The notes under the pieces: generated by a model
The model's input: the letters and a program-made list of their open reading frames with translations, nothing else
Databases searched by the model: none
Told to the model about the DNA's origin: nothing
Source: Acidobacteriota bacterium
GTDB lineage: Bacteria; Acidobacteriota; UBA6911; RPQK01; JAJDTT01
Reading direction: 5' to 3'
DNA: 64,000 nucleotides
NCBI GenBank assembly: GCA_965263035.1
Contig: OZ253580.1
Coordinates: 1,184,001 to 1,248,000 of the forward strand
Part shown: one piece after another, positions 9,564 to 24,921 of the stretch
How positions within the stretch are numbered: position 1 is the stretch's first letter
Layout of the letters: every line of letters starts with the position of its first letter
Position numbers and translations under genes: made by a program

Positions 9564-10778
9564 TCAGAAATATTGCTTGAAACCGAAGAAGAGAGTCCGG
9601 GGTACCCCTCCGTACTCGGTCCCGGGACTGCGCTCCGTTCCAGAACCGGCGCCGAATCCGAGCTGGCCCCCGATCAGGAACTCCGAGTCATTGCCGGTGG
9701 ACCAGGTCAGGGAGGGCAGCCAGAGGAGGGAGCCATCGCTGCCGTTGACGAGTGCGGTGGTGGAAAAGGTGCAAAGAGGGTGCAGGAGCAGAGCCAGCGA
9801 GACCCCTCCATAGAGCCGGCCCGTCCCGTTGACCTCCCCCCGGGATATCCGGTCCGAGTCGTAGTAGAGAGGGTACTCTCCGGGCGAGGCGGTTCCATAC
9901 CCGTTATAGGCTCCCTCCAGAATCAGGGTCAGGTAAGGCGTCAACTGCCGATCGACTCCCACCGAACCTCGCCAGAAGGACTCCCGGTTCCGTTCCGCAT
10001 CCGCCCCGTCTCCCGACCGTGTCCAACTGACCTCACCCCGCAAGCCGGTCCCGGCAAGGTCCGAAGTCAAGAAAAGGCCGGCGACGTCATCACCGTGGAA
10101 ACTGCCCCCCATGACCCCCACGTCCACCGCACCGGCGTTCAGCCGAAGTTGGAACCCGGCAGCGCCGTCCTCTCCGGGCTCAGGACCCAGTGAGGCGGCC
10201 ACGACCTCCAACTCGGAGAACTGCCCCAGGCGCAAAACCCCACGAACGGCATCGATGCCGGGCTTGTAGTCGCGGTCGAGGCGCTGGGGAGCGAAGGGAG
10301 CGAAGAGGTCCAGAGCCGGCCAGAAGTAACTGACACCCCAAGTGAGTGCCTGCCTCCCCACGATAACGTTCAGCGCGTCGAACTCCACCTCCACGTTCAG
10401 GCGATCGAAAGCGGCCAACAGGCGCCCCTCCGGCCGGTTCATCAGGCGGTTCTCCAACGGCAGATAGAGGGCCGCCGAGGAATCAGCGAGATCGGCCGAA
10501 GTGGACAAGGGAGGAGAAAGGAAATTCAGTATGACGTGGGATTCGACGCGGGCCCGTCGGGAGAGTTCCAGATCGGAGGTCAGCCGGAGTATGGCCAGCT
10601 CGGAATCACGCCTGGCTGCCGGTGCCGTCCTCTCTCTCAGGAAGAGATAGGACCGGATCGATCCACCCCAGTCCAGATCCTGGGCCTGGAGCCCAAGCGT
10701 GGCCAACAGCCAGAACGGAGGAAGCAGCCGCAGCCATGACCACGTGTTAACGCCTTTCGTCGGCATCGACTTCCCCAT
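9564..10778 (-). CDS. Putative outer-membrane beta-barrel protein
   Basis: Signal peptide, DRL..GRQALTWG..P.D.FAPF...DRDYKPGIDA motif, amphipathic strands, terminal aromatic YF. Confidence 0.65.
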   Translation of the reverse strand: MGKSMPTKGVNTWSWLRLLPPFWLLATLGLQAQDLDWGGSIRSYLFLRERTAPAARRDSELAILRLTSDLELSRRARVESHVILNFLSPPLSTSADLADSSAALYLPLENRLMNRPEGRLLAAFDRLNVEVEFDALNVIVGRQALTWGVSYFWPALDLFAPFAPQRLDRDYKPGIDAVRGVLRLGQFSELEVVAASLGPEPGEDGAAGFQLRLNAGAVDVGVMGGSFHGDDVAGLFLTSDLAGTGLRGEVSWTRSGDGADAERNRESFWRGSVGVDRQLTPYLTLILEGAYNGYGTASPGEYPLYYDSDRISRGEVNGTGRLYGGVSLALLLHPLCTFSTTALVNGSDGSLLWLPSLTWSTGNDSEFLIGGQLGFGAGSGTERSPGTEYGGVPRTLFFGFKQYF

Positions 10779-11454
10779 CCACCAAGCGGATGGTTCTCCT
10801 GGCCCGTTCCATGACCCTGGGATCGTGGGTGGAGAAGATGAAGGTCGTCCCGTTGTCCCGGTTGAGCCTTTCCATCAGATCCAGCAGGGAGAGGGCCGTG
10901 CGGCTGTCCAGGTTGGCCGTGGGCTCATCGGCCAGAATCAGCGGTGGCTCCGCCACCACCGCACGCGCCACCGCCACCCGCTGCTGTTGTCCCCCGGAGA
11001 GCTGGTCCGGCTTTCGGTCTTCCAGTCCATCCAATCCTACCTCCTCCAGAATGGCCCGGACCTTTTCCCGGCGTTGGCGACGGGGGACTCCTCGAAGCAG
11101 GAGAATGAATTCGGCGTTTTCCTCCACCGTCAGCACCGGCAACAGATTGTTGGCCTGAAAGATGAAGCCGACCCGCTCGAGCCGGAGCCGAGTCAGTTGT
11201 TTGCGGCTTCTCTGCGCCAGATCGATCCCTTGCAGACGAACGCGGCCGCCGGTGGGATGGTCGATTCCACAGGAGACGTTGAGCAAGGTGGTCTTGCCCG
11301 ATCCGGATGGACCCGCGACGGCCACCAGTTCGCCACTCCGGACGGTCAGGCTGACCTGCCGCAGGGCGTGGACCGTCTGCTCCCCTTGCCGGTAGACGCG
11401 CGAGACGTCCTCGAGCCGAAGCAGGTCCGATTCGCTGGCATGGAGCATGGTCAC
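10747..11454 (-). CDS. ABC transporter ATP-binding protein (LolD/MacB-like)
   Basis: GPSGSGKTT, LSGGQQQRVAVARA, ILADEPTANLD, THD. Confidence 0.95.
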   Translation of the reverse strand: MTMLHASESDLLRLEDVSRVYRQGEQTVHALRQVSLTVRSGELVAVAGPSGSGKTTLLNVSCGIDHPTGGRVRLQGIDLAQRSRKQLTRLRLERVGFIFQANNLLPVLTVEENAEFILLLRGVPRRQRREKVRAILEEVGLDGLEDRKPDQLSGGQQQRVAVARAVVAEPPLILADEPTANLDSRTALSLLDLMERLNRDNGTTFIFSTHDPRVMERARRTIRLVDGEVDADERR

Positions 11455-12707
11455 ATCCGTCCCAACAGCTGGACGCTGACCCGGCGGCCCGCGCGCCATG
11501 CCGGAGCCAGGGCCAGAACCAGGGTCAAAAACACGATGACGGCAGCGGAGGCAAAGACTCGTTCGGCCGATAACCGCGAGTAGAGTACCGGGTCCATCAC
11601 CGCTCCGGCGGCGGAAAGCTCCCCTTCCCCTTCGTAGAAGGCGTCCAGGGGCAGCCCGGCGGATTCCAGGTACAAGTGTGCACCGTATCCCAGGCCCATG
11701 CCCACGGCCGTCGAGAGCAGGGCCAACAGGACCGCCTCGGTGAACATCATGAAGAACCGGCCGGCAGGGGCTAGGCCCAGCGCGTCCAGGAGAGCAAACT
11801 CCCGCCTCCGTTCCAGCGCCGACATCAGCAGCGTGTTGAGGACCACGAAGGCGATGAGGAGAAGGAAGATGCCGTTGAACAGGTAGTTTCCGGCATCGTC
11901 GATGCGTATGAATTCGGTGAGCTCCGGCATGGCCTCCGTCCAGTCCAGCACTTCGGCCGAGTCGGGCAGGAGATTCCGGCCGCGCCGGGCCAGCACTCCC
12001 GCTGCTTCGACGTCTTCCAGAAAGACGGCGATCTGATGGACCTGACCGGGCAGCAGCAACAGCTCCTGGGCAACGTCCAACGGGACGATCACCAGTCGCT
12101 GGTCCAGATCCTCCAATCCTGTCTGCAGGATTCCGCGGACCCTGAGGAGCCGGGACTGGAGTTCGGAGCTGCCCGAGGCCTGGGAGAGGACCACGAACTT
12201 CGAGCCCAGACCGACCCGGAGCTTTCTGGCCACACCGGCGCCGACCACAGCCTGGCCTCCTGAGCCGGGGCGCAGAAACTCTCCCGCCACCAGCTTCTCG
12301 CCGAACTTGGAGGCCTCACTCTCGGGCCCGGGCTGGGTGCCGATGATCCGGACCCCCGTGGAGCCGTCGGCAGAGGATGCGAGCCCCGAGGCAAGGACTC
12401 GCTCCACCACGGTCTGAACCGGCGAGTCGTGGCTCGGCTGCTCGATCCAGTCTCGGACCCGGGACCGGATCCCCTCTCCCAACGCTCTCTGAACGCCGCC
12501 GTGGGCGTGATAACCCTGGCTCTGGATCAGAACGTGACCGGAACCCATGCGGACGGCATTGTCGATCATCTGGAGATGGCTGCCGTCTCCCAGGCCCAGG
12601 GTGACCAGCAGCAACGCCAGACCCAGCGCCACCGTGACCACGGTGAGTATGGTCCGGCGCCGATTGCGTCCCAGATTTCTCCAGGCCAGCTTGAAGACGA
12701 TCTTCAT
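11451..12707 (-). CDS. ABC transporter permease (LolC/E, FtsX-like)
   Basis: LAWRNLGRNRRRT start, large periplasmic loop, NTLLMSALERRREF..L.ALG. Confidence 0.92.
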   Translation of the reverse strand: MKIVFKLAWRNLGRNRRRTILTVVTVALGLALLLVTLGLGDGSHLQMIDNAVRMGSGHVLIQSQGYHAHGGVQRALGEGIRSRVRDWIEQPSHDSPVQTVVERVLASGLASSADGSTGVRIIGTQPGPESEASKFGEKLVAGEFLRPGSGGQAVVGAGVARKLRVGLGSKFVVLSQASGSSELQSRLLRVRGILQTGLEDLDQRLVIVPLDVAQELLLLPGQVHQIAVFLEDVEAAGVLARRGRNLLPDSAEVLDWTEAMPELTEFIRIDDAGNYLFNGIFLLLIAFVVLNTLLMSALERRREFALLDALGLAPAGRFFMMFTEAVLLALLSTAVGMGLGYGAHLYLESAGLPLDAFYEGEGELSAAGAVMDPVLYSRLSAERVFASAAVIVFLTLVLALAPAWRAGRRVSVQLLGRM

Positions 12708-12711
12708 GCCG

Positions 12712-13959
12712 TCAGGCCTTCGACAGATTCCTCATGGCCAGGACCGGACTCACGAACGCGGCCCGCAGAGCCGGGAGCAGCGAGGCGATGACGGTCGCCA
12801 GAACCAACCCCACCGCCGGCCACCACACGGCGTTCCACGACCAGACGACGGGAATCACAGGATCCATCCGGGTTTCCAGCATTGAGATCTCGCCCATCCA
12901 GGATCGCAGGTCCAGCCCGGTGGCACTCAGGTGCCAGACCAGCAGGCTGCCCAGCGCCAGGCCCACGCCCAGGCCGACCGCCGCCAGAGCCAGACTCTCG
13001 GAAAGGACGGTGAGGACCACCCGGGCCGGGCGCATGCCCAGGGCCGAGAGCATCCCCAGCTCCCGAACCCGCTCGAAAACCGACATGAGCATGGTGTTCA
13101 AGACACCCAACGCCGCGAAAAGAGCCACCAGGCCGATCATGAACACGTAGCTGGCGCCCGCCATGTCCAGGTAGTCGCTCAGCGTGGGAAGAAGACTCCT
13201 CCAGCTCCGGGCCACGGCGCCGGGCGGAAGGATTCCCGAATCGTTCAATCTGGCCGCAACCCTCTCAGCGTCGCCGGGGTCGCGAAGCTTGAGCGCAATT
13301 TCGTGAATCCGCTCGGGCGCCAGCGCCAACAGCTCTTGAAGATCCGTCAGGTGGACCAGGGTCAGCGACCGGTCCAGCAACGCCATGCCCGTGTGCAGCG
13401 TGCCCCGATTCCGGTAGAGGTCGTTGCCGATGGTTCCATCGGCGGCCTGGGTCACCAGGGCGATTTCGGTTCCCATGCCGGCAACCAGCTCCTGTTCCAA
13501 GGCTTCCCCCAGAAGCAGGCCCCGTCCCTGGAGATTCTTCTGACTTCCATGCCCCTGCAACCCGCTGACCTGGGCTTCCTGGACGGGGTCAATTCCCACG
13601 ATCGCGACTCCGGAGGAGTATTCGCCCGTGGACGCCAGGCCGGCGGTGTGAATCCGAGCCGTGGCAGCCACCACCTCGGGCTCGTCGAGCAGTCTCTCGG
13701 TGAGGGCCCGCCAGTCGGTTCCCCCGCTGCCTCCCAACGTTTCGTACAGGTCCCGGTCGGGCAGATAGTCCTGGTGTTGGATCTGGACGTGTCCCACCAG
13801 GAGATCGGTGCCGTTGTCGACCATCTGGACCAGCATGCCTTCGGTGAGACTGACCAGGAACATCAACACGGCGTACCCGGAGGCCAGGCCGCCGATGGTG
13901 ATGAGACTGCGGAGAGGGTTTCTCCAGAGATTCCTCCACCCCAGGAGAAACACCATCAT
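12712..13959 (-). CDS. ABC transporter permease (LolC/E, FtsX-like)
   Basis: LGWRNLWRNPLRS, NTMLMSVFERVRELGMLSALG, PALRAA. Confidence 0.92.
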   Translation of the reverse strand: MMVFLLGWRNLWRNPLRSLITIGGLASGYAVLMFLVSLTEGMLVQMVDNGTDLLVGHVQIQHQDYLPDRDLYETLGGSGGTDWRALTERLLDEPEVVAATARIHTAGLASTGEYSSGVAIVGIDPVQEAQVSGLQGHGSQKNLQGRGLLLGEALEQELVAGMGTEIALVTQAADGTIGNDLYRNRGTLHTGMALLDRSLTLVHLTDLQELLALAPERIHEIALKLRDPGDAERVAARLNDSGILPPGAVARSWRSLLPTLSDYLDMAGASYVFMIGLVALFAALGVLNTMLMSVFERVRELGMLSALGMRPARVVLTVLSESLALAAVGLGVGLALGSLLVWHLSATGLDLRSWMGEISMLETRMDPVIPVVWSWNAVWWPAVGLVLATVIASLLPALRAAFVSPVLAMRNLSKA

Positions 13960-14762
13960 GGTCTCGCCCGCAGGTTGGCAAGGGAGAAGGTCTTTTCGGT
14001 GATCGGGACGTCAAAGGAGAGGTCCTTGTAGACCATCTCGGTGAACTCCCCCTGCTTGTCCTCGGGAACGATACTCATGCGGGTGGGAATCCGCCGCCCT
14101 CCCATGACAGCGTAGTCCGAGAAGCTCATGGTTCGTTTCAGCGACTCGTCCTCGCCATAGTAGCGCGCCCAGACCGGCAACAGGTCCGCCTGCCGGACCC
14201 GGTAGACGATCCGGCCCCAGACCACCGCTGCCTCCGGCTTGGGAACGAGCTCGAACTCCCAGACCGGAATCCCCTCCCGCTCTCCTTCGAAGGAGATCCG
14301 GATGCCGTAGTCTCGAACCAGGCGGCTCTCCTTGACCAGATCGTCGTTGGTGAGATGGGACCCCATCCAGGAGCCCATCATCATGGACATGGGGACGCGG
14401 ATGACCCGCTCGATCTTGGACAGGTAGTTCCACATGTTGGAACCCACCCGCAAGGTGGCGGTGCCGCGGTTCTTCCTGGGAGCCAGGATCCGAATCAGGG
14501 CCTTGTCGGTTCCCTGGGACCAGATCTGGAGGGTCATGCTGCGGTTCCATCTCCGGGTCGCCACCTTCATCTCCACGGTTCCCTTTGAAGACTCTCCGCG
14601 CATCATCTGGTCGACCCGGTCCATGATCTCCCGCGCCCGATCCTGCCGGATCGACGGCGAGGCTTGGTTCGAAGACGGCTGGACCAGGGCCAGCGATGAG
14701 ACGGCGATGAGCAGGAGGAGAAGGCCCCCCGGCAGTGACGGATTCCGCGTCGTGTGTTTCAC
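13956..14762 (-). CDS. Outer membrane lipoprotein-sorting (LolA-like) periplasmic protein
   Basis: P...RG.ATL...MWNYL, SWMGSHLTNDDL, terminal FSLANL; signal peptide; position in ABC operon. Confidence 0.85.
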   Translation of the reverse strand: MKHTTRNPSLPGGLLLLLIAVSSLALVQPSSNQASPSIRQDRAREIMDRVDQMMRGESSKGTVEMKVATRRWNRSMTLQIWSQGTDKALIRILAPRKNRGTATLRVGSNMWNYLSKIERVIRVPMSMMMGSWMGSHLTNDDLVKESRLVRDYGIRISFEGEREGIPVWEFELVPKPEAAVVWGRIVYRVRQADLLPVWARYYGEDESLKRTMSFSDYAVMGGRRIPTRMSIVPEDKQGEFTEMVYKDLSFDVPITEKTFSLANLRARP

Positions 14763-16709: not shown

Positions 16710-17618
16710 TCAGGTCAGCGGCGGACGGCGGAATACTTCCTTGTAGTGCCAGTTCACGAACTCAGGTCTCGGGTCCACCAAACGGTTCCGAGGAGTACGG
16801 AGGGGCTTTCCATGGTAATCGAGAAACCACCGAACCGGATCGCGCCGACCGTGGATTTCGCTGGAAACGAGCACCTTGTAGTCCGCACCAGCGCCTTCCA
16901 GACCAAATGCACCTCGGTCAAATGCCTTATGGTGAAGCCCGCACAACGCCAATCCGTTTGCTACCGTGTCCGGTCCGCCAGCCGCCACCCACTTGATATG
17001 TGCAGCCTCCACACCGATCAGGTCATCTCCGAGTCGCACGTCGAAGTTGCAGATGGCACATCGGTACTGATATTCGCGCAACACATGGCGCCGGAAAGCT
17101 GGGTCGCGCCGGCGGACCGGCGTCTCTCGAACTTCCCATGCGTACGGAATACCAGTGGCGACGCGGATTTCATTGTGCAACGACTCTGGAAAATGTGAGT
17201 CCAAGAGTCCCTGCGCGGCTTCTCGCGCAATTTCCGAGTGGCGACGCAATAATTTGTATACCCACTCGGGGAATCCGCCCTTGACGCCACGTTTTCGTAA
17301 ATCCCGGACGCGAAAGTCCCGCCCCGGTGGGCAGTACAGGTTTTCGCATCCGGGAATCTCCCAAAGTTGGTCTCTAGGTAACCGGCTGAACGGAAACTCC
17401 GGATGGTAACTGTGGCGAGGTGGACCGAAGCGTCGCAGCAACTCCTTCATCCGCCCCTCTATCTCGGGGTAGGAGACGAGGCGTTCCTCATTGTTCATGA
17501 CGCGCCCGAGCGCCAGCAGTAGTAGCAGAGGTTTGTGCGGTGCACGCACACCTTGCCGCTTCCACACCTGCAGATTCTGGAAGAGCTCAAGCAGCCTATT
17601 ACGGGCCATCACCTGCAC
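16710..17618 (-). CDS. HNH endonuclease with N-terminal sulfur-binding-like domain (putative phosphorothioate-dependent restriction enzyme)
   Basis: N-terminal RAPHKPLLLL and PEFPFSRL; C-terminal RDPAFRRHVL..Y..RCAIC, EAAHIKW..GGPD...NGLALCGLHHKAFDRG. Confidence 0.8.
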   Translation of the reverse strand: MQVMARNRLLELFQNLQVWKRQGVRAPHKPLLLLLALGRVMNNEERLVSYPEIEGRMKELLRRFGPPRHSYHPEFPFSRLPRDQLWEIPGCENLYCPPGRDFRVRDLRKRGVKGGFPEWVYKLLRRHSEIAREAAQGLLDSHFPESLHNEIRVATGIPYAWEVRETPVRRRDPAFRRHVLREYQYRCAICNFDVRLGDDLIGVEAAHIKWVAAGGPDTVANGLALCGLHHKAFDRGAFGLEGAGADYKVLVSSEIHGRRDPVRWFLDYHGKPLRTPRNRLVDPRPEFVNWHYKEVFRRPPLT

Positions 17619-17839
17619 GTGTCAGTAGCGCACGGTCTTTACACCCTCAACTCGATTGAGCGTCTCCGACCAAGACCAAATTCAAACCCGATTAGCCGGT
17701 GGCAATGGTCTTTACGGCATTCGACCTCCGCCATATTCCGACCGATGGTGTCGCTATTCGCTTACCTACGTCCGCCGATTATCGGAGGCTGGGTTCAACG
17801 GGGAGATATCTGTCACGAGCCGATGCGACTCGATCTAAC

Positions 17840-18172
17840 TCAGCTGGCCGTCATCCGGTCGATCTTGGCGGCCAGGACGAAGTCGCTCTCGGTCAGGCCG
17901 TCGATCTTGTGGGTCCAGAGGGTGATCTCCACCTTGCCCCAGGCCAGATAGATGTCCGGGTGGTGGTCTTCCGCTTCGGCGACTTCTCCGACCTGGTTGA
18001 CGAAGGCCAGCGCGTTTTCGAAATCGGGGAATCGAACCAGCTTGCGCAGGTGATGGTCCCCGACCACCTCCCATCCTTGCAACTGGTCCAGAAGGGGTGC
18101 GATCCCGTCGGCCGTCAGCGGCGAAACTCCGCCTCGGCAGGGGATACATCTTCGTTCGGCGAGTTGGGTCAC
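17840..18172 (-). CDS. phhB: Pterin-4-alpha-carbinolamine dehydratase
   Basis: AE.EDHHPDI, WTHKIDGLTESDFVLAAKID; GTG 18172 preceded by AAGGAGG. Confidence 0.92.
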   Translation of the reverse strand: MTQLAERRCIPCRGGVSPLTADGIAPLLDQLQGWEVVGDHHLRKLVRFPDFENALAFVNQVGEVAEAEDHHPDIYLAWGKVEITLWTHKIDGLTESDFVLAAKIDRMTAS

Positions 18173-18245
18173 GATCAAGCCTCCTTGTCGGTGCAACAGC
18201 CGGAGGTCCCCGGCTTCAACAGCCCGAGGAGCGCCACCTGAACGC

Positions 18246-18282
18246 AAAAATGGAGGCTGGCGGCGAACCGCGAGCCTCCATT
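18246..18282 (-). terminator. Rho-independent terminator downstream of radical SAM gene
   Basis: Hairpin AATGGAGGCT...AGCCTCCATT with a T tract on the minus strand. Confidence 0.7.
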
Positions 18283-18322: not shown

Positions 18323-20332
18323 TCAGCCGACATTCAGGGTCACCAGGTCGTTCTTCTTCTTTTTCTTGAGCACTATCTCCTCATAGTACTCCCGCACCGC
18401 CGCCTGCTCCCGCAAGGCCTTGCGCCGCGCCATCTTCTCGTCGCGGGCGGTCTGGGGTTTGTCGCCACGGTCGCGGACGCGCGCCGCGTCGTCGCCCCGG
18501 ATCTGCAACGAGTGATCGTAACTCTGCAACGGCGCATCCTTTCCACCGGCGAAGATCTGATGACGGCCGTTCTCCTTGTACCACTGGGCGACGGTCGCGT
18601 TCTTGTGCATGTTCTCGATGATCTGCCGCCAGCCATGGCCCGTGTTGTAGGCACAGAAGGAGATCTCTCCCTCCTGGGTGGCGTAGGGGATGATGCACAT
18701 CTCGGTGCGGCGGAAGTCGTAGTTGAACAGGTCCTGAAACCACATGCCGGCCACGAAGAGGAAGTTCCAGGGATCGTCCCTTCGCTTCTTGCCCTGGCCG
18801 TAATCCTTTCCGCTCAGACCGAAGCTCTTGTCGAACTTCCTGAGGATGTCGATCAGAGTGAGACGGGACGGCGCATTGAAGGGGCTGTAGTTCTTCAGCA
18901 CGGCCAGACCGATCATGAAATTCGAGAATTTGGTGCTCCGGGCCGCGTCGGTCACCTTCTGCATGTCCTTGACCAGCCCGGGGATGTTCAGGAACTGGGG
19001 AACCGGAGCCGCCTCTTTGGTCTCCTTGTCGATCATCATGGCGGTTCCCACGCCGCAATTCGGATGGCAGCCGCAACTGACCTGACCCCAATCGGCGTTG
19101 GGACCATGGGCCACGTCGGCAAAGTCGGCAAACGCGCCCATCAGGGACAGCGGAAACCAGTCACGGGTGGGCTCGGTGAGTCCTACTTGGCCCTTCACGT
19201 CCTGGGCCAGGTGAGACAGGGTGTACCGCTGGCGGAGCCGCCGCTCGTCGGTGATGGCCTCATCCCTGCCGGTGAAGGAGACGGGCTGGAAGGCGATGAA
19301 GGCCACCTTCTTGGGGTTGTCCATGGCGAAGCGGATGATGGGTCCGACCTGGTCGTTGTTCACGTCGTTGACCAGCGTCGTCACCAGAATGACCTCGATT
19401 CCCGCCTTGTGGATGTTGTCGATGGCCTTGATCTTCACATCGAACAGGTTTCCGATGTGCCGGTGACTGTTGGCGTCGTTGCCGATGCCGTCGAATTGCA
19501 GATAGGTGTAGCGCAGTCCGGCCTCGTACGCCTTCCTGGAAAACTCCAGGCTCTTGGCGAACTCGATCCCGTTGGTGGCCGCCTGGACGCTGTTGTAACC
19601 GATCTTGCGGGAGTACTTGAGGGCCCGGAAGAAATGGGGCGACATGGTGGGCTCGCCGCCCGAGAACTGTACGGACATCTGCCTGCGGGGCTTGATCTGC
19701 AGCGAGTTGTCCAGGATCTCCTTGATCTCCTCCCATTCCAGCTCGTGGACGTAACCCACCTGGTTGGCATCCATGAAGCAGGGGTCGCACATCATGTTGC
19801 AACGGTTGGTGAGGTCGACCGTCAGGACGCTTCCCCGCCCGTGCTTGATGGTGCTGGACCCGTGGTTGTGGAGGGTGGAGTCATTGTGGGACCGGATATC
19901 CCGACCCGGGAAGTTGGCCTCGATCCAGCTGAGGAACTTGGAGTCGATGGCCATCAGGTCCTCGCACTTCCCGTGGATGGGGCATTCCTTGACCATCCAG
20001 ACCTGCCCTTCCCGCTCAATGATGGTGGCCTTGATCTCGCCCACCTTCTCGTTGATCAGGATCCGGTAGTCTTCCTGGCCCTCGATGATCTTTTCCCGGG
20101 CTTCGACCACGCACTTGGGGCAGAGAGAATCGGTCTTCCGGGGCCAACCCAGAGTGGGTTTGGTCTTCTCCCACGACTTGAGTAGAGGTTTGTCGGACCA
20201 CTTGGGCGTGAAGGACGGGTTGGGCCGATAGTTGTTGAAGAACTGAATGGTGTCGAAAGCCATGCCGGCGCCGAAGGACAGAGCGGCGTCGAAACACTTC
20301 CAAGCTTTATGCAAACCGGTTGATCTTGGCAT
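18323..20332 (-). CDS. Radical SAM protein, tetraether lipid synthase (Tes/GDGT-MAS) family homolog
   Basis: SLCPKC...KECPIHG N-terminal module, DLTNRCNMMCDPCF, QFSGGEPT, YLQFDG, FQPVSFTGR, CHPNCG, MWFQDLFNYD.RR..CIIPYA.....SFCAYN; ATG 20332 with AGGAGG. Confidence 0.8.
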   Translation of the reverse strand: MPRSTGLHKAWKCFDAALSFGAGMAFDTIQFFNNYRPNPSFTPKWSDKPLLKSWEKTKPTLGWPRKTDSLCPKCVVEAREKIIEGQEDYRILINEKVGEIKATIIEREGQVWMVKECPIHGKCEDLMAIDSKFLSWIEANFPGRDIRSHNDSTLHNHGSSTIKHGRGSVLTVDLTNRCNMMCDPCFMDANQVGYVHELEWEEIKEILDNSLQIKPRRQMSVQFSGGEPTMSPHFFRALKYSRKIGYNSVQAATNGIEFAKSLEFSRKAYEAGLRYTYLQFDGIGNDANSHRHIGNLFDVKIKAIDNIHKAGIEVILVTTLVNDVNNDQVGPIIRFAMDNPKKVAFIAFQPVSFTGRDEAITDERRLRQRYTLSHLAQDVKGQVGLTEPTRDWFPLSLMGAFADFADVAHGPNADWGQVSCGCHPNCGVGTAMMIDKETKEAAPVPQFLNIPGLVKDMQKVTDAARSTKFSNFMIGLAVLKNYSPFNAPSRLTLIDILRKFDKSFGLSGKDYGQGKKRRDDPWNFLFVAGMWFQDLFNYDFRRTEMCIIPYATQEGEISFCAYNTGHGWRQIIENMHKNATVAQWYKENGRHQIFAGGKDAPLQSYDHSLQIRGDDAARVRDRGDKPQTARDEKMARRKALREQAAVREYYEEIVLKKKKKNDLVTLNVG

Positions 20333-20620
20333 CGAGAATCTTCCTCCTGAAATCTGGGGGCGGGACAAAAGTCTACCGTAGAGCCCCTCGCAAAGCGTCA
20401 CGCAGGACGCGCCACATCACCCTTGCCAGCAACTATCCTGCGCCCAAGGTGGCGCCGGGGTCAACCTGGCATTGGCGACCAGGATGGCAAGATTCCTTTT
20501 TTTTCCCGAAAGTGATCCGTTTTTGCACACTCCCTTAGAGATAAATTGGAAGAAACCCTTTTCTGAGTTAGAATCTGTGTTGCGGTTCCAACATGCGAAT
20601 TCCGCGCGGGGTATTTTTCA

Positions 20621-21220
20621 ATGATTATCTTTACCAATGAAGCCAAAGAGCAGGTCCTGGCTGTGATCCGGCAACAGCAGGGCAAGAATCCGGCCCTTCG
20701 AGTTCAGGCCACGGCCAACGGCACGGCCGAATTTCAATACAGCATGCAATTGATCACGGCCGAGGAGCAGAGCCCGGAGGATCTGGTCGTCGATTCCGGT
20801 GAATTCCGGGTGATCCTGGACCCCAGGAGCGCCGAGAACCTGAACGGGGCCACCGTCGACTTCGAGGACAAGATCCTGAGGAGCGGCTTCAAGTTCCAAA
20901 ATCCCAACAAGCCGACGGTTCCAACGTTGGGCGAAGGCCCGAGAAAGGACCTTACCGGACCGGTGGTGGAACGGGTTCAGAGATTGCTGGATACGGAAAT
21001 CAATCCTGCCATTGCCGCTCACGGGGGACAGGTTCATCTCCTCGGAGTTCGCAAGAGCAAGGTCTATCTCTCTTTCGGCGGGGGCTGCCACGGTTGCGGT
21101 ATGGCAGACGTGACCCTGAAGGAAGGAATCGAGACCCGCATCAAGGAGGTGGTCCCCGAGATCGTCGAGGTCGTGGACACGACCGACCACACAACCGGGG
21201 AGAATCCCTACTACTCGTAG
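20621..21220 (+). CDS. nfuA: Fe-S cluster biogenesis carrier NfuA (degenerate HesB + NifU-C)
   Basis: GFKFQNPN, EINPAIAAHGG, FGGGCHGCGMADVTLKEGIE, TDHTTGENPYY. Confidence 0.9.
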   Translation: MIIFTNEAKEQVLAVIRQQQGKNPALRVQATANGTAEFQYSMQLITAEEQSPEDLVVDSGEFRVILDPRSAENLNGATVDFEDKILRSGFKFQNPNKPTVPTLGEGPRKDLTGPVVERVQRLLDTEINPAIAAHGGQVHLLGVRKSKVYLSFGGGCHGCGMADVTLKEGIETRIKEVVPEIVEVVDTTDHTTGENPYYS

Positions 21221-22758: not shown

Positions 22759-23331
22759 GTGTGGGAAAAGGGAACCGAAGCCAGACGGCTCGTTTACGGA
22801 ATCTGGACGGTATGCCTTTGCTCGACCCTGGTCTTCACCGCCTCCTCGCTGGGGGTGCTGAGCCGGGAGGAGGCGCTGGCGGCGGCCTATCCGGCTGCCC
22901 AAATCCGGGCGGAACGAGTTTTTCTGACCGATCAACAGCGTCGCCGGGCAGCGAAGCTGGCCAAGGCCGATATTCCCAGTCCATTGATCGCCCGTTACGT
23001 GGCACTCCGGGCGGACCGGGTGGTCGGTCGAGCATACGTGGACACTCATGTCGTCCGAACCAAGAAGGAAAGCTTGTTGATCTGCCTTGATGGGGAGGGA
23101 AAGGTGCAGCGAATCGAGGTGACCGCATTTCTCGAACCTCCCGAATACCTCGCATCGCCGGACTGGTACGCCCAGTACGAGAGTCGCGAGCTCAGTGACG
23201 AGCTTTCCCTGAATCGGGCCATACGACCCATCGTCGGAGCGACCCTGACCAGCTTGGCCGCCAACCAGGCCGTGCGCCGGGTGCTGGCCATCGACCAGGT
23301 ATTGCAGGCCGAATCGCAGCCCGGGAAGTAG
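22759..23331 (+). CDS. Extracytoplasmic FMN-binding (flavinylated) protein
   Basis: HVVRTKKE, F.EPPEY, IVGATLTS flavinylation-type motif; signal/TM segment. Confidence 0.85.
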   Translation: MWEKGTEARRLVYGIWTVCLCSTLVFTASSLGVLSREEALAAAYPAAQIRAERVFLTDQQRRRAAKLAKADIPSPLIARYVALRADRVVGRAYVDTHVVRTKKESLLICLDGEGKVQRIEVTAFLEPPEYLASPDWYAQYESRELSDELSLNRAIRPIVGATLTSLAANQAVRRVLAIDQVLQAESQPGK

Positions 23332-23336
23332 ATGAC

Positions 23337-23801
23337 ATGAGCCGCTGGGAAGCCTGGTCGTTTCACATCCTCTCCGTGGTGCTCTCGGCTACGGGGATTT
23401 TCCTCTTCGTCATGAAATACCTGATGGAGAGCCATGATCCGTTTCAGTTGGTCAATCATCCCTGGCAACTCTCTACCCAGAACCTTCACATTCTGGCGGC
23501 TCCCTGCCTGATTCTGATTCTGGGAATGATGTACGGGAGTCACATCACCGACAAATTGCGCAGTCGAACCAAGAGCAATCGGCGCACTGGAATTCTGATT
23601 CTGGTCAGCTTTCCCCTGATGGTGATCTCCGGCTACCTGCTCCAGGTCTTCACCCATCCCACCCTTTCCATCCTGGCCGTCGTCGTGCACTCGGTCAGCG
23701 GGACGGTATTCGCTCTGACCTACCTCTGGCACCAGTGGGTGACCTTCCGGCTCTGGCTCCGTCGGCGAAGAAAGCGCGAGATCAGGTCTCTTGCCGCCTG
23801 A
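23337..23801 (+). CDS. Four-helix His-rich membrane protein (DUF4405/cytochrome b-like)
   Basis: Four TM segments with intramembrane His (NLHIL, GSHI, VVHSVSG, LWHQ); lies between FMN-binding gene and apbE. Confidence 0.65.
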   Translation: MSRWEAWSFHILSVVLSATGIFLFVMKYLMESHDPFQLVNHPWQLSTQNLHILAAPCLILILGMMYGSHITDKLRSRTKSNRRTGILILVSFPLMVISGYLLQVFTHPTLSILAVVVHSVSGTVFALTYLWHQWVTFRLWLRRRRKREIRSLAA

Positions 23802-24921
23802 ATCCAGGCGGCAACCCCGGAAACCGGCGTCATTCCTATTCCGGCTGCTGGCGACAGCCTTCCTCTGCGGCGCTTCCCTGCTCCCGGCTCTGTCCGCTCC
23901 CGAGCTGGTTCCCGTGCGACGGCAGGTGGTCCTGATGGGGACGCTCTGTACCCTGAACGTCTATGCCCGGGACCGGGCTTCCGGAATCGGCCGGTGCGAG
24001 ACCTACATTCGTCTTCTGGAGGAGGCGAACCGGCAACTCAGCACCTGGGTGAAGGAGAGCGAGCTCAGTCGTTTGAACCGGCATCCGGTCGGTGTCCCCT
24101 ACCGGTTTTCTCCGTCGCTGTGCCTGCTCTACAGCGAGCTGCTCCACTGGAATCGGGATACCGAATCCGCCTTCGATCCCGCCATCGGCGCCCTGGCAAA
24201 CGCCTACCGGAGCCTGTCGACGCAACGGACCGGCTTTCGGGAGAGACTGGAGCGGGCCCGGCAATCCTCGGGCATGAGGCATCTCAAGTTCCGGCGGGAG
24301 GATTGCACTGTCGTCCGTGGGGAACAGGTCCTGCTGGACCCGGGAGCCTTCGGCAAGGGTGCGGCCCTGGACAGTGTCTACCAGCACGCCCGAAGCCAGA
24401 AAGACCCGCCCTGGCTCATCGACCTGGGTGGCCAAGTCATGACTTGGGGCACTCCTCCCGTCGAATCCGGATGGAACGTGGAAATCGCCGATCCCGACCG
24501 CCGCACCGTACCGGTTCTGTCGATCCAACTCGACAGTGGAAGCCTGGCCACGAGCGGCGGCTCAGAACGGGACATTCGCGTCGGAGATCGGCGGGTGGCG
24601 CATATTCTGGATCCCAGGACCGGGACCGGCGCCTCCTTCCAGGGCTCGGTGGCAGTCTGGCATCATCGCGCCCTGGTTGCGGACGTTGTTTCCACCGCGC
24701 TCTACGTCATGGGTCCGGAGGAGGGCCTGATCTGGGCGGACCAGCGGAACTTGGCCGCCTGCTTTCTGGACCGGCCACGGATCGAGGGCAATAGAACCGA
24801 ACTCCGGACCCGGGTCACCCGAGCTTTTCTGCAGAGATTTCCGGAGATGGAGTTCACGGAATCGACAGTTTCAGCCGGCCGCTCCCCAGGTTCCCGACGG
24901 AGTCCACGACCCGAACCGTGA
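23791..24921 (+). CDS. apbE: FAD:protein FMN transferase ApbE
   Basis: LMGT, SELSRLN, AFDPAIG, LDPGAFGKG, DLGG, ATSGGSER, HILDPRTG, ADVVSTAL. Confidence 0.92.
   Translation: MPPESRRQPRKPASFLFRLLATAFLCGASLLPALSAPELVPVRRQVVLMGTLCTLNVYARDRASGIGRCETYIRLLEEANRQLSTWVKESELSRLNRHPVGVPYRFSPSLCLLYSELLHWNRDTESAFDPAIGALANAYRSLSTQRTGFRERLERARQSSGMRHLKFRREDCTVVRGEQVLLDPGAFGKGAALDSVYQHARSQKDPPWLIDLGGQVMTWGTPPVESGWNVEIADPDRRTVPVLSIQLDSGSLATSGGSERDIRVGDRRVAHILDPRTGTGASFQGSVAVWHHRALVADVVSTALYVMGPEEGLIWADQRNLAACFLDRPRIEGNRTELRTRVTRAFLQRFPEMEFTESTVSAGRSPGSRRSPRPEP

Follow-up and report, generated by a model that had tools for sequence, protein, structure and literature searches.

Branched GDGTs (glycerol dialkyl glycerol tetraethers; brGDGTs) serve widely as palaeoclimate proxies, and which enzyme joins their chains in aerobic Acidobacteria is the question raised by the gene described here. 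A survey with a 30% identity filter reported no mss in Acidobacteria and archaeal tetraether synthase (Tes, or GDGT-MAS) homologs in 3 of 14 producers, and concluded that a separate acidobacterial pathway exists (PMC13159169; for this and all other cited sources, statements refer to the accessible parts of the text). Here, we report a Tes-like radical S-adenosylmethionine (SAM) protein, P0001 (669 amino acids [aa]), encoded in a 64,000-nucleotide (nt) stretch of an Acidobacteriota genome (GenBank assembly GCA_965263035.1, contig OZ253580.1, positions 1,184,001 to 1,248,000, forward strand), hereafter the window. P0001 belongs to a bacterial branch, termed the long form, that lacks the motif for one of the four metal sites of Tes, and by analogy with archaeal Tes it probably couples two acyl or alkyl tail ends to give iso-diabolic-acid-type lipids.

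Fold and family

The preliminary description had taken the gene for a bacterial homolog of archaeal Tes, an identity borne out by structure and profile comparisons. The best solved relative of P0001 was PDB 7TOL, the GDGT-MAS of Methanocaldococcus jannaschii (E value, 3.5e-64; residues 99-575), with MoaA next (4e-8). An AlphaFold model (pLDDT 90.4) aligned with 7TOM over 474 residues (Z 40.8; root mean square deviation, 2.3 Å), the next best match being MoaA at Z 21 over the barrel only, and Foldseek TM scores by target were 0.87 to 0.89 against GDGT-MAS structures. The superposition with 7TOM takes in the helical, lipid-binding half at the C terminus, and about 62 N-terminal and 78 C-terminal residues lie outside it (model range 63-591). 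Among NCBIfam models, Tes NF045702 scored best (322 bits; profile positions 1-483 of 486).

Other identities were rejected. MoaA TIGR02666 gave 61.5 of 284 bits, and the genome holds a separate MoaA at 388 bits. TrsS shares the rubredoxin plus radical SAM half with P0001, but NF045646 gave 210 bits against a cut-off of 490, its match stops at residue 383, and P0001 stands outside the TrsS clade. Gms, first considered Tes-like, was dropped as a close paralog because PMC11186832, in its accessible text, describes a SPASM enzyme.

The fold also bears on a non-lipid explanation, a housekeeping radical SAM enzyme of cofactor or pterin chemistry. The database name “7,8-dihydro-6-hydroxymethylpterin dimethyltransferase” and a downstream pterin dehydratase gene in the same orientation speak for it. 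We consider it improbable: the annotation is uncorroborated for the M. jannaschii enzyme MJ0619 and was judged wrong from its structure (PMC9433317), the lipid-binding half is retained in the P0001 model, and the dehydratase gene is adjacent in 26 of 139 loci, nearly all of P0001’s own order, with a strong hairpin between the two genes.

Phylogenetic position

Tree homologs came from a representative search with a canonical bacterial sequence (70 of 150 listed were classified by NCBIfam; 20 were looked up for names, five of which were identified as archaeal). A FastTree tree (107 sequences) and an IQ-TREE quick tree (63 of these, with 44 dropped for speed) were rooted on TrsS, with no bootstrap. 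The long form made one clade (support, 100) that falls, together with sequences exceeding the NCBIfam Tes cut-off, within a bacterial Tes clade (SH-aLRT, 99); the sister of the bacterial clade contained the five named archaeal sequences (93), and TrsS fell outside. The phylogeny check proposed in the preliminary description thus places P0001 within Tes and not with TrsS, although quick trees with long branches call for caution on the apparent placement of the long form. P0001 is Tes-like by structure yet is not filed in the Tes equivalog, because it lacks the N-terminal cluster motif and falls short of the NF045702 cut-off; the full Tes architecture claimed for it was therefore given up.

Metal sites and conserved residues

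MJ0619 has four metal sites (PMC9433317, PMC13459092): a rubredoxin iron (ligands C9, C12, C33, and H36), an N-terminal [4Fe-4S] cluster (C73, C77, C80, and a His), the radical SAM cluster, and a C-terminal [4Fe-4S] cluster that, with Met439, parks the first lipid radical (ligands and parking role, PMC9433317). The enzyme also binds bacterial phospholipids (PMC9433317). MJ0619 positions were mapped onto P0001 via the printed 7TOL alignment (residue = chain number minus 20). Conservation was scored in 178 distinct homologs from 207 loci (140 long-form sequences, query included, 30 canonical, and 8 weaker), which are not independent, 80 of the loci having been chosen as close relatives.

The gene is an intact open reading frame (ORF) from ATG 20332 to the stop at 18323. 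This start, given in the preliminary description, is preferred over the upstream GTG at 20401 because AGGAGG lies 10 nt upstream and ORFs at 12 kin loci (L002-L013) are likewise 669 aa. Its parts are as follows.

18323..20332, minus strand: long-form Tes-like radical SAM protein gene (P0001), 669 aa, by ORF, structure, and profile matches
20343..20348, minus strand: ribosome-binding site AGGAGG, 10 nt before the ATG
20147..20332, minus strand: N-terminal extension, aa 1-62, moderately hydrophobic, with a helix at 5-33 in the predicted model
19973..20122, minus strand: rubredoxin-like site C71, C74, C117, H120 (MJ0619 C9, C12, C33, H36), by PF23545 and 140/140 branch sequences
19862..19888, minus strand: His segment H149...H155-x-H157 replacing the N-terminal [4Fe-4S] motif of Tes, by alignment
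19778..19801, minus strand: radical SAM motif C178-x3-C182-x2-C185
19055..19075, minus strand: C420-x-C422-H423-P-N-C426, with C426 a presumed C-terminal cluster ligand and C420 branch specific
18653..18745, minus strand: C-terminal cluster region M530 (Met439), C546, Y550 (Tyr459), C560, by alignment to 7TOL
18326..18559, minus strand: C-terminal extension, aa 592-669, lacking a counterpart in MJ0619; its residues 629-653 form a long charged helix in the predicted model

The motifs read C71-x2-C74...C117-P-I-H120-G, C178-x3-C182-x2-C185, Y277LQFDG, F348QPVSFTGR, H423PNCG, M530WFQDLFNYD, C546-I-I-P-Y550-A, and F559CAYN. Every motif listed in the preliminary description is therefore present, with the correction that three residues, not two, separate C546 from Y550. 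The series was wrongly called full, since the N-terminal [4Fe-4S] motif of MJ0619 has no equivalent in P0001: the segment aligned to C73/C77/C80 holds no cysteine. The motif is lost in all 140 long-form sequences, each of which has one CxxxCxxC compared with two in 30/30 canonical bacterial Tes. It was probably lost more than once, judging from P0145 (in a cluster named Parcubacteria), an unrelated sequence that scores 584 bits on the Tes model, groups with archaeal sequences, and is also without the motif.

The catalytic parts are retained. C71/C74/C117/H120, C178/182/185, C426, M530, C546, Y550, and C560 are invariant in the long form (140/140 each), the last five also in 30/30 canonical sequences, and the rubredoxin-site spacer is 42 residues versus 20 in Tes. 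Eleven contacts to SAM or 5'-deoxyadenosine are kept (F186, G226, Y277, D281, R291, V317, T319, Q349, S352, T354, and R356; the R291 assignment is one residue off the HMMER pairing). Together with Met439, Tyr459, and the three C-terminal cysteines, these make 16 of 16 mapped MJ0619 positions kept, in 138 to 140 of 140 branch sequences; C426, C546, and C560 are presumably the three Cys ligands of the C-terminal cluster. H155 and H157 occur in 140/140 long-form sequences and H149 in 123; C420 and C422 occur in 140 and 139. H155, H157, H290, C420, W531, and H591 are invariant residues specific to the branch.

Could the long form be a crippled or accessory Tes paralog, inactive alone after loss of its N-terminal cluster? 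The missing motif and the existence of a degenerate member in Terriglobus roseus point that way. Against this, 180 positions are at least 98% conserved across the 140 long-form sequences, the gene is the sole Tes-like one here and in most carriers, and P0145 combines a high Tes score with the same absence, which together make this account very unlikely.

P0001 differs from MJ0619 (28 to 30% identity; compared by sequence and predicted fold) in its His pair at the place of the N-terminal [4Fe-4S], the extra invariant C420, its length (669 versus about 506 aa, both ends extended), a score below the family cut-off, and a bacterial host; the whole fold, rubredoxin site, radical SAM cluster with SAM contacts, and C-terminal cluster with Met439 and Tyr459 equivalents are alike. 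Canonical bacterial Tes (about 540 aa; at least 450 bits on NF045702) shares the bacterial Tes clade, the C-terminal cluster residues, and the proposed role; it differs in keeping both CxxxCxxC motifs (30/30), in its 33 to 37% identity to P0001, and in carriers that are more often without an aa3-type oxidase. For the N-terminal extension of P0001, membrane docking is possible; no transmembrane segment was found in P0001 (highest 19-residue Kyte-Doolittle mean of the whole protein, 1.18).

Distribution and oxygen

P0001 is the genome’s only Tes-like gene, in single copy; the other 20 PF04055 proteins belong to other families or are unnamed. Its closest named relatives are Acidobacteriota, and it was matched in 41/41 genomes of its own order (66 to 97% identity where full-length), a presence like that of a housekeeping gene. 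A near-identical sequence occurs in libraries labelled sponge metagenome (share, 0.57 to 0.62; four runs of one study). A pattern search of viral contigs gave no match for viral copies.

The phylum was surveyed with an even sample of 301 genomes (unpublished genome G062 included), scoring three to five candidates per genome and calling the long form at a best E value of 1e-190 or better. At 1e-20, 186 genomes were matched, and 39 passed the Tes cut-off. The long form was found in 140 genomes (134 without the canonical form, 6 with both), the canonical form only in 33, and fragments or weak TrsS-like matches only in 13. The two forms are thus largely complementary (134, 33, and 6 of 301). Within its branch, which is very common, the P0001 gene is unremarkable.

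Named carriers among the best 80 of 594 confirmed loci included Pyrinomonadaceae, Aridibacter, Chloracidobacterium, Solibacteraceae, and Acidiferrales; Alloacidobacterium dinghuense and, at the level of metagenome-assembled genomes, Acidobacteriaceae and Edaphobacter also carry the long form. Cultured members of carrier groups make iso-diabolic acid without mss (PMC13159169, table S21). Gemmatimonadota copies (L042-L047) are 74 to 77% identical to P0001 and keep the NfuA-like neighbor described below in 4/6 loci, which suggests that the gene may have been transferred between phyla.

Oxidase content was tested with the aa3-type subunit I model (TIGR02891; E value, 1e-60), using 41 of the 134 long-form-only genomes, about one per family. 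The oxidase was present in 39/41 long-form-only, 20/33 canonical-only, and 3/6 both-form genomes, and among canonical-only genomes it was absent in 7 of 11 families. The pattern fits an oxygen-adapted long form weakly: related genomes do not count as independent, and the oxidase is present in two large families with the canonical form only.

Earlier reports and the identity filter

The idea of a role for bacterial Tes is not new, and any novelty implied in the preliminary description is not supported: a 2022 study described 456 bacterial homologs and suggested that they act in brGDGT synthesis (PMC8941075), and tes with elbD or ger was reported in sponge Acidobacteriota in 2026 (10.64898/2026.06.23.733905). 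Two Solibacter usitatus homologs have been described (>40% and >30% identity; PMC10087280), as have Koribacter tetraesters (Chen et al. 2025, as cited in PMC13023045). In the supplement of PMC8941075, one gene of Edaphobacter sp. 12200R-103 is listed at 2,100 nt, which matches the long form in length. Judged by length and by a weak score against archaeal Tes, this gene and probably S. usitatus Acid_2410 most likely belong to the long-form branch, and Acid_5929 is probably of canonical type by its published scores. In the accessible text of PMC8941075, such genes are treated simply as Tes homologs, with no mention of a lost cluster or separate branch. In the literature searched (subscription journals lay outside coverage), no bacterial Tes homolog had been put to experimental test and a form without the N-terminal cluster was not mentioned; the two bacterial forms, the lost cluster, and the filter effect considered next appear undescribed there.

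Published BLAST filters used an E value of 1e-50 or better with identity of >20% or ≥30%. We compared these using five stand-in archaeal queries in place of the published query proteins. Against the stand-ins, long-form sequences had median identities of 26 to 29%, and 0 to 24 of 140 passed the 30% filter, compared with 30/30 canonical sequences. P0001 itself had 26 to 30% identity, reached 1e-50 with two of the five queries, and passed the 30% filter with none. The scarcity of Tes in PMC13159169 may therefore be a threshold effect of the 30% filter.

Mss (Thermoanaerobacter, Thermotoga), the other candidate screened in that study, is likewise a radical SAM enzyme, has been shown to couple fatty-acid tails, and has the same proposed product class. 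By description, it differs in being remote to Tes, in occurring in anaerobes, and in going undetected in the Acidobacteria screened (PMC13159169).

Proposed function

A role in membrane-spanning lipid synthesis, which the preliminary description had offered as a candidate, stands as the best guess for P0001. We judge it probable that P0001 is a three-cofactor, long-form Tes paralog. It would link two phospholipid acyl or alkyl tails, with iso-C15 chains the likeliest, through their terminal carbons, and its products would be C30 membrane-spanning lipids of the iso-diabolic acid type, which form the backbone of brGDGTs. On the model of MJ0619 (PMC9433317), the radical SAM cluster (C178/182/185) would cleave SAM, and the resulting 5'-deoxyadenosyl radical would abstract a hydrogen from one tail end. 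The lipid radical would be parked on a sulfur of the C-terminal [4Fe-4S] cluster (C426, C546, C560, and M530) until a second SAM generated a second tail radical, which would displace the sulfur and complete the C-C coupling. With the N-terminal cluster gone, electrons would pass through the rubredoxin site, and ether bonds, if any, would come from the ElbD-like protein encoded in the genome rather than Ger.

More tentatively, and a little short of even likelihood in our estimate, the whole long three-cofactor branch would be the missing iso-diabolic acid synthase of aerobic Acidobacteriota and, in soils and sponges, the chief source of the brGDGT backbone, derived from canonical bacterial Tes by shedding a surface N-terminal [4Fe-4S] cluster as an oxygen adaptation and overlooked just under the 30% filter. 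The lost cluster would then perhaps be replaced by a His/Cys metal site (H155, H157, C420, and C422). If true, the branch would provide a marker gene for brGDGT producers, and one of the four Tes metal centers would be dispensable.

Several observations weigh against these proposals. The NF045702 score of 322 bits is below the curated cut-off of 450, one of the four metal sites is lost as judged by its motif, and a long stem (0.44 + 0.35 changes per column) leads to the long-form branch, as can be seen where function has changed. No match of any kind was found in 115 of the 301 phylum genomes, and among the best 80 of 594 loci, carriers also include Gemmatimonadota, Eisenbacteria, Vulcanimicrobiota, and Verrucomicrobiota, for which we know of no record of iso-diabolic acid. 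The sole named cultured iso-diabolic acid producer among the matches, T. roseus, has a degenerate copy (WP_014786616; P0245), a divergent long-form paralog that is without the C-terminal cluster, since C426, C546, and C560 are lost, and that is possibly a different or dead enzyme. A conserved lipid-gene neighborhood was not found by ORF clustering at 119 loci or at 18 more distant loci (28 ORFs scanned). Activity of bacterial Tes is stated to be unconfirmed (PMC11868695; 10.64898/2026.06.23.733905).

Some of these points also suit a lipid-tail radical enzyme with a changed outcome, which would cyclize, desaturate, methylate, or thiolate the tail, or act on another hydrophobic substrate (e.g., an isoprenoid), leaving iso-diabolic acid to a different enzyme. 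The long stem and the six invariant residues peculiar to the branch agree with this, and a division of labor would fit both the co-occurrence of the two forms in 6/301 genomes (in two cases with genes 3-6 kb apart) and the two S. usitatus homologs; a separate acidobacterial pathway is also argued in PMC13159169. We regard this explanation as rather unlikely, as the coupling-mechanism residues are all kept, the two forms mostly replace each other, and the published argument rests on a 30% filter that, with stand-in queries, excludes most long-form but no canonical sequences. In two genomes (L201:6256-13489 and L202:4991-14478), a BNR/sortilin-type gene separates a long-form from a canonical Tes gene of the same orientation, the distance being 3-6 kb.

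Neighborhood and other genes

Three features flank the gene.

18245..18281, minus strand: terminator-like hairpin plus U run that follows the gene (-26 kcal/mol; z, -4.9)
17840..18172, minus strand: pterin-4a-carbinolamine dehydratase gene, downstream (26/139 loci)
20621..21220, plus strand: divergent gene for an NfuA-like Fe-S carrier with A-type and NifU domains (37/139 loci)

A terminator scan gave 0 sites; folding revealed the bulged hairpin, which suggests a stand-alone transcript for P0001. An operon with the dehydratase was rejected on its occurrence in 26/139 loci only and the intervening hairpin, and this lineage-limited neighbor is probably unrelated to P0001. The NfuA-like neighbor, a possible cluster donor, is found mostly in the same order; flank lengths at the loci range from 1.5 to 8 kb. 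In four RNA libraries from two studies, contigs span most of the P0001 gene; contigs of >30 kb occur in two of these libraries, so DNA was probably present, and coverage is no proof of transcription.

Rrf2, A-type carrier, or IscU genes occurred near the long form in 4 of 18 distant loci, and other lineages had unrelated neighbors. The Rrf2 or Fe-S assembly genes upstream of long-form genes (L188:3763-4281, L190:3865-4284, L195:7381-7911, and L193:8231-9035) echo the NfuA-like neighbor. In a single case (L200:810-10498), the long-form gene has around it genes that encode aromatic amino acid lyase, AMP-ligase, B12 radical SAM, deacetylase, and glycosyltransferase proteins and that may form a glycolipid cluster.

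A genome search for ger and mss had been suggested in the preliminary description. Neither PF09989 nor PF01869 (Ger/PlsA) was found in the 97%-complete genome. None of the 20 other radical SAM proteins was named Mss by NCBIfam, a library that may hold no Mss model, and no Mss query was used. A candidate ether-lipid enzyme, on its domain content, is a 1,456-aa ElbD-like protein (G000:C1:2855790-2860157; L213:7790-12157) with NAD_binding_4, Sterile, AMP-binding, PP-binding, and acyltransferase domains, whose gene adjoins F420 cofG/cofH genes. A 507-aa B12-binding radical SAM protein (G000:C1:5041387-5042907; L141), for which no family model passed its cut-off, is a possible lipid methylase or ring synthase partner.

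Elsewhere in the window, 16710-17618 (minus strand), a lower-GC stretch, encodes an HNH protein above the NF045808 cut-off (phosphorothioated-DNA-binding restriction endonuclease); this region is uncovered by two of four libraries, and two show a 73-nt skip at 17633-17707. A three-gene run at 22759-24921 (plus strand) ends with an ApbE flavin transferase, its first two genes being without family matches. Genes for a LolA-like protein, two FtsX/MacB permeases, an ABC ATPase, and a 404-aa protein that matched no family (9564-14762, minus strand) make up what is, by predicted content, an uncharacterized export cassette.

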